A stretch of 22,691 bases of DNA from a virus (taxonomy: Duplodnaviria; Heunggongvirae; Uroviricota; Caudoviricetes), in the IMG/VR virus record IMGVR_UViG_643886067_000002, one strand, 5' to 3'. Positions 5,935 through 6,544 of this stretch are shown in pieces. How positions within the stretch are numbered: the first letter of the stretch is position 1; the number at the start of each line of letters is the position of its first letter. A model generated the notes under the pieces. That model saw nothing but the letters and a program-made list of their open reading frames with translations, was not told where the DNA came from and made no database searches. A program made the translations under genes and the position numbers.

Positions 5935-5960
5935 GGGGAGCCTGAGCGCTCCCTTTTTTT
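5935..5960 (+). terminator. Intrinsic terminator-like hairpin plus T7 run downstream of the ykgJ-like gene
   Basis: gggagc-loop-gctccc stem followed by ttttttt (5954-5960) on the plus strand; on the minus strand the run is 5' of the hairpin, so it is oriented for plus-strand termination. Abuts the stop codon of the last prophage ORF. Confidence 0.55.
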
Positions 5961-6256
5961 CAGCTAAAAATCAGCATACAGCCATACAATCCCGCACAGG
6001 CCACCACCGGCACCACAAAATCCATCAGGCTTGCCACATCCCACGCGTGCGGATCAAAACCGCCCCACCACGGCATCTTATGTCGGTGACCATCACCAAA
6101 ACGCTTAATCCAGCGATATTCTGCCTGGGTATATTCGCGGGCAACAAAAAACGTACAGGCAATGGCTGCACCATAAGCCCAGTCACCGGTAATGCACCCA
6201 ACCAGCCCCTGTACCGCCACAGCACAAATTGCATGAAGTATCGGCGTGATATCCAT
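5960..6256 (-). CDS. Small hydrophobic (membrane or lipoprotein-like) protein, 98 aa, last gene of prophage late operon
   Basis: ATG at 6256 with AAGGA 6 nt upstream; 9 nt after the stop of the preceding 92-aa ORF; hydrophobic segments at both ends; N-terminal ...AVAVQGLVGC resembles a lipobox (L-V-G-C). No family recognised. Confidence 0.55.
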   Translation of the reverse strand: MDITPILHAICAVAVQGLVGCITGDWAYGAAIACTFFVAREYTQAEYRWIKRFGDGHRHKMPWWGGFDPHAWDVASLMDFVVPVVACAGLYGCMLIFS

Positions 6257-6265
6257 CTGCTATCC

Positions 6266-6544
6266 TTAAAACCACTCCCTGAGCGGGCGCTCTGGTGTAA
6301 CCACCCACTCACGGAACACGGAATCATCAAATCCATCGTCAAGAAGACGGATATTAACAAAGTACCCTTCGTTTCGCGTGTATTCTGGTTCTCCGTCATC
6401 AGAAACATCTGTCTCCCTGAACGTAAAACCAATCTCATCAACCAGAACGGCATTCTGCAGCTCTTCGTCCTCTTCCCAGTTAAGTTTCCTGAGAAATGCC
6501 CTGAAATCTGCTTTATCACTGAAACGCAACGTGAAATCTCTCAC
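6266..6544 (-). CDS. Small acidic protein, 92 aa, translationally coupled to stf
   Basis: GTG start (6544-6542) overlaps the stf TGA stop (GTGA); strong SD GGGGAGG 7 nt upstream; no ATG anywhere in the ORF; about 23 D/E versus 11 K/R. No family recognised. Confidence 0.5.
   Translation of the reverse strand: MRDFTLRFSDKADFRAFLRKLNWEEDEELQNAVLVDEIGFTFRETDVSDDGEPEYTRNEGYFVNIRLLDDGFDDSVFREWVVTPERPLREWF

Follow-up and report, generated by a model that had tools for sequence, protein, structure and literature searches.

Two probably independent accessory genes close the tail operon of a lambda-like Escherichia coli prophage carrying a lectin-like side tail fibre

In phages lambda, T4 and Mu, a tail-fibre assembly gene (tfa, gp38 and gpU, respectively) lies directly downstream of the fibre gene and is inherited with the C-terminal tip of that fibre. 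Another class of small genes, including cor and llp, adjoins receptor-binding genes. Branched fibres have been described as well: according to the searched text of the BASEL completion paper, the distal T-shaped fibre of phage Bas32 attaches to a proximal fibre with a galectin-like C-terminal domain (PMC11990801). We have analysed a window of 22,691 nucleotides (nt) of tailed-phage DNA (IMG/VR record IMGVR_UViG_643886067_000002), which is 100% identical to the chromosome of E. coli ABU 83972. Behind its side tail fibre gene, stf, where tfa would be expected, lie two small open reading frames (ORFs), here designated p92 and p98 from the lengths of their products in amino acids (aa).

We conclude that the region consists of two independent accessory genes closing the late (tail) operon, and that p92 and p98 are not one cassette. 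Taken together, the data make it reasonably probable that p92 is the cognate partner of the lectin-like Stf tip and that p98 is an autonomous inner-membrane protein acting on the envelope. The features concerned are as follows.

9423-13115, minus strand: J, in the lambda-like tail region
8756-9355, minus strand: lom, in the lambda-like tail region
6541-8604, minus strand: stf, side tail fibre, 687 aa (matches to PF08400, phrog_1419 and GTA_spike_fiber)
6544-7836, minus strand: StfC, the C-terminal ~430 aa of Stf, residues 257-686 (homology to phage fibres)
6552-6558, minus strand: GGGGAGG, Shine-Dalgarno sequence of p92, within the stf 3' end (sequence reading)
6266-6544, minus strand: p92, acidic alpha/beta protein, 92 aa, GTG start (phrog_1361; AlphaFold2, AF2)
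5960-6256, minus strand: p98, hydrophobic protein with three predicted membrane helices, 98 aa (phrog_1443; AF2)
6053-6148, minus strand: near-invariant core of p98, residues 37-68, F..RE.TQAEYRWI...G.G.R.NMPWWGGFD (alignments)
6194-6205, minus strand: LVGC motif of p98, residues 18-21, within helix 1, its Cys not conserved
5935-5954, no strand assigned: GC-rich hairpin between an A-run and a T-run, just past the p98 stop (terminator scan and sequence reading)

The stf frame ends in ...GAG TGA, with its stop at 6541-6543, and the GTG start of p92 at 6542-6544 overlaps it by 4 nt (GTGA), with GGGGAGG eight bases upstream. The TAA stop of p92 (6266-6268) and the ATG of p98 (6254-6256) are separated by 9 nt, and AAGGA is found at 6263-6267. 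An earlier note, made from the sequence alone, had described this arrangement accurately, overlap, strong Shine-Dalgarno sequence and gap included, as well as the acidic nature of p92 (isoelectric point, pI, 4.26; 24 D+E and 12 K+R) and the hydrophobic nature of p98 (grand average of hydropathy +0.52). The order stf-p92-p98 is kept in related prophages: it occurs in the classical lambdoid phage 21 and in wild lambda-like phages, many of which have it. Of 5426 complete E. coli genomes, at least 1241 (at least 23%) contain it, and there the annotation is always 'hypothetical protein'.

Both p92 and p98 are real, conserved genes rather than chance ORFs, because they have full-length matches to PHROG families of 'unknown function' (p92 to phrog_1361, 1.1e-40, residues 1-92 of 92; p98 to phrog_1443, 4e-44, positions 1-91 of 97) and diverse homologues, show purifying selection (for p92, proportions of nonsynonymous and synonymous differences of 0.24 and 0.86, respectively, the latter saturated; for p98, a dN/dS ratio of ~0.3), and give confident AF2 monomer models (predicted local distance difference test scores of 92 and 93, respectively). 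That neither protein belongs to a characterised family, as the same note had stated, was borne out by scans of Pfam, NCBIfam and PADLOC, which returned no match for either (for PADLOC, which covers known anti-phage defence systems, none at E <= 1). Sequence and profile searches of the PDB gave no meaningful match. Literature searches covering lambdoid Stf, the lateral fibres of BASEL phages, DT57C and chimeras of engineered STF turned up no characterisation of either gene.

The distribution of p92 follows that of one fibre tip. In the phage collection, 191 records contained p92 and 205 contained the last 320 aa of Stf. The organism breakdown did not differ between the two, and their coordinates abut in all records inspected that were listed by both searches. 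With an overlap of 1 to 4 nt or a gap of a few nt, p92 stands behind the fibre gene in phages KarlJaspers and orkinos (T1-like), IrisVonRoten (T5-like), FFH2 (rV5-like), rolling (Dhillonvirus), BRET (9g-like) and phage 21. Among lambdoid phages, a p92 homologue directly follows a fibre sharing the Stf 257-686 domain in phage 21, Lambda_2E9 and PhiR49_2. In all the T1-, T5-, rV5- and 9g-like, Dhillonvirus and lambdoid genomes inspected, the fibre preceding p92 shares this domain to the last few residues (32 to 54% identity to StfC, extending up to the last residues), and p92 identity rises and falls with StfC identity across phages. Furthermore, 66 bacterial genome loci gathered for p98 were scored for StfC-like and p92-like genes: a p92-like gene was found in nine of nine loci with an StfC-like gene, compared to none of 57 without (Fisher P = 3e-11). 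Members of four groups of BASEL model phages carry p92. Several records named Campylobacter or Listeria phage, for example C11, C14, C15 and LM 4-11-1, have p92 within fibre modules of the E. coli rV5-like or T5-like kind, and their host labels seem doubtful.

The virulent T1-, T5-, rV5- and 9g-like phages and Dhillonvirus have p92 and lack p98. Since most of the phages inspected are virulent and without p98, p92 is expected to have a structural or assembly function in the fibre module, and not to be a lysogeny gene.

In Stf, the proposed partner of p92, an N-terminal domain for tail attachment is followed by a shaft rich in Ala and Ser and by a lectin-like C-terminal tip. Stf residues 1-131 correspond to PF08400 (prophage tail-fibre N-terminal domain, 1e-66), and residues 1-94 match the chain 'Tail fiber protein' of PDB entry 9e7m. 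The C-terminal part matches phrog_1419; residues 329-530 match the NCBIfam model GTA_spike_fiber (head-spike-fibre domain of gene transfer agents, GTA), and residues 298-545 match the RcGTA head spike fibre (PDB 6TB9), the latter weakly (E = 4e-5). These two similarities support the proposal of a LamG-like or lectin-like tip; the equivalent part of the Bas32 proximal fibre is called 'galectin-like' in the text searched (PMC11990801). Across phage families, Stf blocks 248-347, 508-567 and 648-687 are conserved and blocks 348-507 and 568-647 variable, which is the pattern expected of a scaffold bearing receptor-binding loops.

Judging from this linkage, p92 is most likely dedicated to the fibre tip, as a protein for its assembly or an accessory to it, and would do the job of Tfa without being its homologue. 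It stands where a member of the Tfa class would stand, directly 3' of the fibre gene, and is co-inherited with the C-terminal tip of the fibre. The absence of tfa behind stf was confirmed, and neither sequence nor fold homology was found between p92 and Tfa (Pfam Caudo_TAP), gp38 or gpU. The AF2 model has a small alpha/beta fold (topology b-a-a-b-b-b-b-a), for which a Foldseek search of BFVD matched solely uncharacterised phage proteins and gave no convincing solved or annotated relative. From the sequence, stf and p92 are coupled in translation, and the Stf tip and p92 are inherited together, as a single module, in temperate and virulent phage families alike. The p92 protein most likely binds the conserved scaffold of the lectin-like tip and would assemble or complete it, in the role of an assembly chaperone or in that of a small structural adaptor, which could also form the docking site of an optional distal fibre. 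The earlier idea of a chaperone for the Stf tip therefore holds as far as service to the tip is concerned, this being the reading best supported by the strict linkage; chaperone and adaptor both stand.

Could p92 instead work independently of the fibre, as an acidic DNA mimic, an anti-defence protein or a PKD-like domain? The pI of 4.26 would suit such a role, and summed HMMER matches to PKD-repeat proteins were obtained. However, the score per repeat did not exceed ~18 bits and the domain E-values were far above 1, so that only the sum over repeats was significant; there was no Pfam PKD match, and the AF2 fold is alpha/beta whereas PKD is an all-beta sandwich. The PKD identity was rejected on these two grounds, the summing of weak repeats and the ill-fitting predicted fold. 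Given also how strictly p92 is linked to one fibre tip, a fibre-independent role appears very unlikely.

A second fibre gene often accompanies the tip and its putative partner. The genes that lie between p92 and p98, or that follow p92 in several virulent phages, encode fibre proteins with a variable C-terminus and a common N-terminus, MATxTVIPxDITxLK. The gene order around p98 was examined in the 80 closest IMG/VR loci (L089-L168): it was StfC-p92-p98 in 40 and StfC-p92-distal fibre-p98 in the other 40, and 39 of these 40 distal fibres had the motif. Examples of motif-bearing distal fibres, originating from T5-, 9g- and T1-like phages and lambdoid prophages and having unrelated C-termini, are located as follows.

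L075, 4789-6513
L079, 4278-6017
L074, 3770-4447
L007, 5286-5990
L004, 4918-5958
L076, 3792-4052

The MATxTVIPxDITxLK peptide probably serves for docking in a branched fibre. It was found in none of the six frames of the window. On the evidence of these loci and of Bas32, we consider that the window has the short version of a fibre system that is modular and potentially branched. As p92 is kept whether or not a distal fibre is there, its main task must lie with the tip itself. In KarlJaspers, the distal fibre gene is annotated 'putative lateral tail fiber chaperone'. In the searched text of the Bas32 and DT57C papers (PMC11990801 and PMC4728585), the 92-aa gene is given no role.

The distribution of p98 is different: p98 is a separate module, which closes, on the distal side, the receptor-binding gene blocks of temperate sipho-, podo- and myoviruses. 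It is found behind the tailspike genes of the P22-like phages Gally and 611R6 (in P22-like phages it lies between tailspike and int), behind the tail fibre gene of the epsilon15-like phage phiv142-3, behind tfa and just before the sheath gene in myovirus phiHAP-1, and, in prophages of Leclercia, Pantoea and Desulfovibrio, behind fibres or spikes that are unrelated. Epsilon15 itself has no p98 counterpart annotated after the tailspike gene; an O-antigen ligase family gene adjoins instead. In 32 of 80 IMG/VR viral contigs, the end of p98 is less than 100 nt from the contig end, and frequently no gene of the predicted prophage region comes after it. In phage vB_EcoP-611R6, a 37-codon 'tail fiber protein' ORF (L083, 3345-3458) between an O-acetylase gene and p98 represents what is left of the C-terminus of a lambdoid distal fibre; p98 is intact behind this remnant, with 96% DNA identity to an Escherichia ruysiae locus (L004). 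Here p98 has been kept while the fibre gene was lost.

The two genes also differ in their recent history. Compared with PhiR49_2, dS is 0.05 for p92 and 0.67 for p98, a discordance that argues for a recombination breakpoint between them. DNA homology to most phage genomes breaks at window position 5996, within the 3' end of p98, where a recombination junction is placed. The ~11 terminal codons of the gene (...GLYGCMLIFS, 5960-5996) are unlike those of most relatives (...LLVWLLVNRG).

These observations bear on the two-gene cassette proposed in the earlier note. In that case both proteins would serve the Stf tip, p98 being for instance a membrane platform for fibre maturation, or the two would form a two-component defence or toxin-antidote pair. 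The tight packing, p92 overlapping the stf stop and p98 following 9 nt after p92, would agree with this, as would the presence of StfC-p92 upstream of p98 in all 80 closest IMG/VR loci (adjacent in 40, with a distal fibre in between in 40) and the recurrence of the trio in Comamonas and Chelativorans. However, each gene occurs without the other: p92 is without p98 in the virulent phages listed above, and p98 is without p92 in 57 of the 66 genome loci, in P22-like and epsilon15-like phages and in phiHAP-1, as well as in chromosomal loci. In addition, a fibre gene can separate the two, their divergence is discordant, and the lack of a PADLOC match does not favour a defence pair. We regard a single functional cassette as improbable, and retain two independent genes.

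A profile search with an alignment of diverse p98 sequences yielded a family of at least 1865 clusters, ranging over alpha-, beta-, gamma- and deltaproteobacteria. No Pfam domain, domain fusion or informative name was present among the 120 family matches listed, and Pfam and NCBIfam scans of ten diverse homologues gave no match. Neither p98 nor these ten homologues matched the Pfam families of GtrA, acyltransferases or Wzy. In sphingomonads, related alphaproteobacteria and one Burkholderiales genome, a chromosomal p98 lies directly downstream of ligA, often in the order recN-ligA.

L056, L061 and L069: chromosomal p98 in alphaproteobacteria, including sphingomonads, with recN upstream in L056 and L069
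L062: chromosomal p98 in Burkholderiales

These ligA-linked copies have Arg-rich C-terminal tails and look like a cellular branch of the family.

In the AF2 model of p98, helices span residues 4-23, 26-53 and 74-97, and conservation is concentrated in residues 37-68, with invariant columns in two alignments. The C-terminal tail has a net charge of +1.27 (26 diverse members), and the turn between helices 1 and 2 carries R/K in alphaproteobacterial members. By the positive-inside rule, this charge distribution suggests an N-out/C-in topology, in which the conserved loop would be periplasmic.

The LVGC motif and the position next to receptor-binding genes, as for cor and llp, had led to the suggestion of a Cor-like lipoprotein, that is, an outer-membrane lipoprotein of the Cor/Llp type blocking the receptor of the phage itself. 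This suggestion did not survive inspection of the family. Cys21 is replaced by Leu or another residue in most of 34 aligned relatives (for the most part LVGL, FGI and the like), the protein begins with MD and has no positively charged N-region, and three confidently predicted membrane helices span the whole protein. Moreover, the neighbours of p98 are many unrelated fibres and spikes, for which no single outer-membrane receptor fits. We rejected a lipoprotein identity because LVGC lies within helix 1 and Cys21 is not conserved, and consider it extremely unlikely.

A scan for sigma-70-like promoters between 5800 and 7000 in the window detected none, so that a classical moron having its own promoter, another of the possibilities initially raised, finds no support here. 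With no promoter between stf and p98 and a hairpin after it, the late transcript probably has p98 as its last cistron in this prophage. In the Gally genome, p98 has a terminator before it; a promoter-like site matching at 9 of 12 positions follows p98, and its frequency is no better than chance. Probable late expression, three predicted membrane helices and a length of about 100 aa, as in class I holins, would also suit an accessory protein of lysis or of the membrane that is made late (holin-, antiholin- or pinholin-like), or a helper of virion release, and in phiv142-3, p98 is just upstream of genes for a membrane protein, a holin, an endolysin and an endopeptidase. Proximity to lysis genes is confined to phiv142-3, however: in lambdoid, P22-like and phiHAP-1 genomes p98 is distant from them, and the chromosomal orthologues adjoin ligA. 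The C-terminal tail is short, without the charged character typical of holins, no Pfam holin family is matched, and the loop is conserved far above what is usual for holins. A lysis function therefore seems quite unlikely.

Our best guess for p98 is envelope-directed exclusion or conversion. The protein would insert in the inner membrane with its invariant loop (REHTQAEYRWI...MPWWGGFD) facing the periplasm, and would most likely act on a conserved component of the host envelope; the probable outcome would be that superinfecting phages are excluded, or that a surface receptor is masked or converted. Several observations weigh against this account. The chromosomal orthologues by recN-ligA in sphingomonads, together with weak relatives in Aeromonas jumbo phages, fit poorly with an exclusion function restricted to temperate phages. 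The StfC, p92 and p98 trio recurs in Escherichia, Comamonas and Chelativorans, which belong to three proteobacterial classes, so that a functional link of p98 to this fibre type is possible. The phage 21 record reports a TMHMM call of two transmembrane domains with both ends inside, and the N-out orientation comes from the positive-inside rule only. Finally, having no detected promoter of its own, p98 may be expressed only late here, which is a poor fit to protection of lysogens. In Chelativorans sp. (L029, 4526-6590), the gene order is StfC-like tail protein, p98 homologue, p92 homologue, and consecutive genes overlap by ATGA.

A more ambitious joint reading can be put forward, which we consider doubtful at present. 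In it, p92 would be the hub of a plug-and-play branched-fibre system spread over at least six coliphage groups, with a lectin-like proximal tip and interchangeable distal fibres docking via MATxTVIPxDITxLK; p98 would be the founder of a new, widespread class of inner-membrane proteins, whose periplasmic loop would target a process conserved across Proteobacteria, so as to block phage entry or remodel surface glycans.

Some neighbouring features of the window were also noted. A YkgJ-family CxxCxxCC zinc/iron-chelating protein (PF03692) is encoded at 5510-5842 on the plus strand, convergent with p98. Judging from its sequence, the hairpin at 5935-5954 is a terminator-like site for this convergent ykgJ-like gene, and it is probable that it marks the end of the fibre transcription unit. 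At 4872-5324 (minus strand), beside the fibre end of the prophage, lies a gene for a 150-aa protein matching the Rhodococcus equi VapA/VapB virulence-associated family (PF05526, E = 5e-34), which is conserved with the fibre genes in many genomes of extraintestinal pathogenic E. coli. Further left, at 3148-4413, the N-terminal part of an F1C/S fimbrial usher gene (sfaF/focD) is missing, and the ABU 83972 annotation makes this gene a pseudogene. In other E. coli genomes, the match to the window is limited to what lies rightwards of about 4413; at that place they carry OmpW- or YcaO-like genes instead. The truncated usher and this start of homology place a junction between a foc remnant and prophage cargo at about 4300-4413 in this strain.

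Both genes are very common: at least 23% of the complete E. coli genomes contain the pair. Neither has an assigned function. If p92 is indeed an assembly factor or docking adaptor, it must accompany such tips when these are grafted onto engineered phages or delivery particles, and its role would explain how proximal and distal fibres combine. As for p98, its family is a tractable orphan one: it counts at least 1865 clusters, its loop is unusually conserved, and Pfam has no model for it. Should a phenotype be found, this would define a new class of envelope-acting phage proteins and give a function to a conserved chromosomal gene of sphingomonads.

Both families are uncharacterised and unrelated to known examples, and yet the general kind is familiar: a fibre accessory gene and an accessory membrane gene at the end of a tail operon. 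Like the exclusion and conversion genes cor, T5 llp, HK97 gp15, P2 Z/fun, P22 gtrABC and the epsilon15 O-antigen genes, p98 occupies slots next to receptor-binding genes (tailspike-p98-int in P22-like phages, tfa-p98-sheath in phiHAP-1, after the tail fibre in epsilon15-like phages). It differs from them in having no homology to any, in not being a lipoprotein, in having no detected promoter of its own here and in having chromosomal orthologues. Compared with lambda Tfa, T4 gp38 and Mu gpU, p92 has the same place directly downstream of a fibre gene and the same co-inheritance with its C-terminal tip, and its translational coupling suggests that a stoichiometric supply is needed, as for these proteins. 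In contrast, p92 has 92 aa instead of about 190, shows no similarity to them in sequence or fold, would serve a globular lectin-like tip whereas theirs is an intertwined trimer, and may be a retained adaptor instead of a chaperone. The RcGTA head spike fibre Rcc01080 (6TB9) is a distant homologue of the Stf tip and points to polysaccharide binding by it, although the similarity is weak (E = 4e-5) and concerns Stf alone, not p92 or p98. In DT57C, whose lateral fibres are branched, LtfA and LtfB, according to the searched text, carry C-terminal autoproteolytic chaperone domains and there is no p92 (PMC4728585). The closest system is that of Bas32, with its proximal Gp22 and T-shaped Gp24: although the window holds the short form, from which the distal fibre is absent, the combination of StfC, p92 and a distal fibre with a conserved N-terminus is, as far as the searched text describes it, the Bas32 arrangement itself (PMC11990801).

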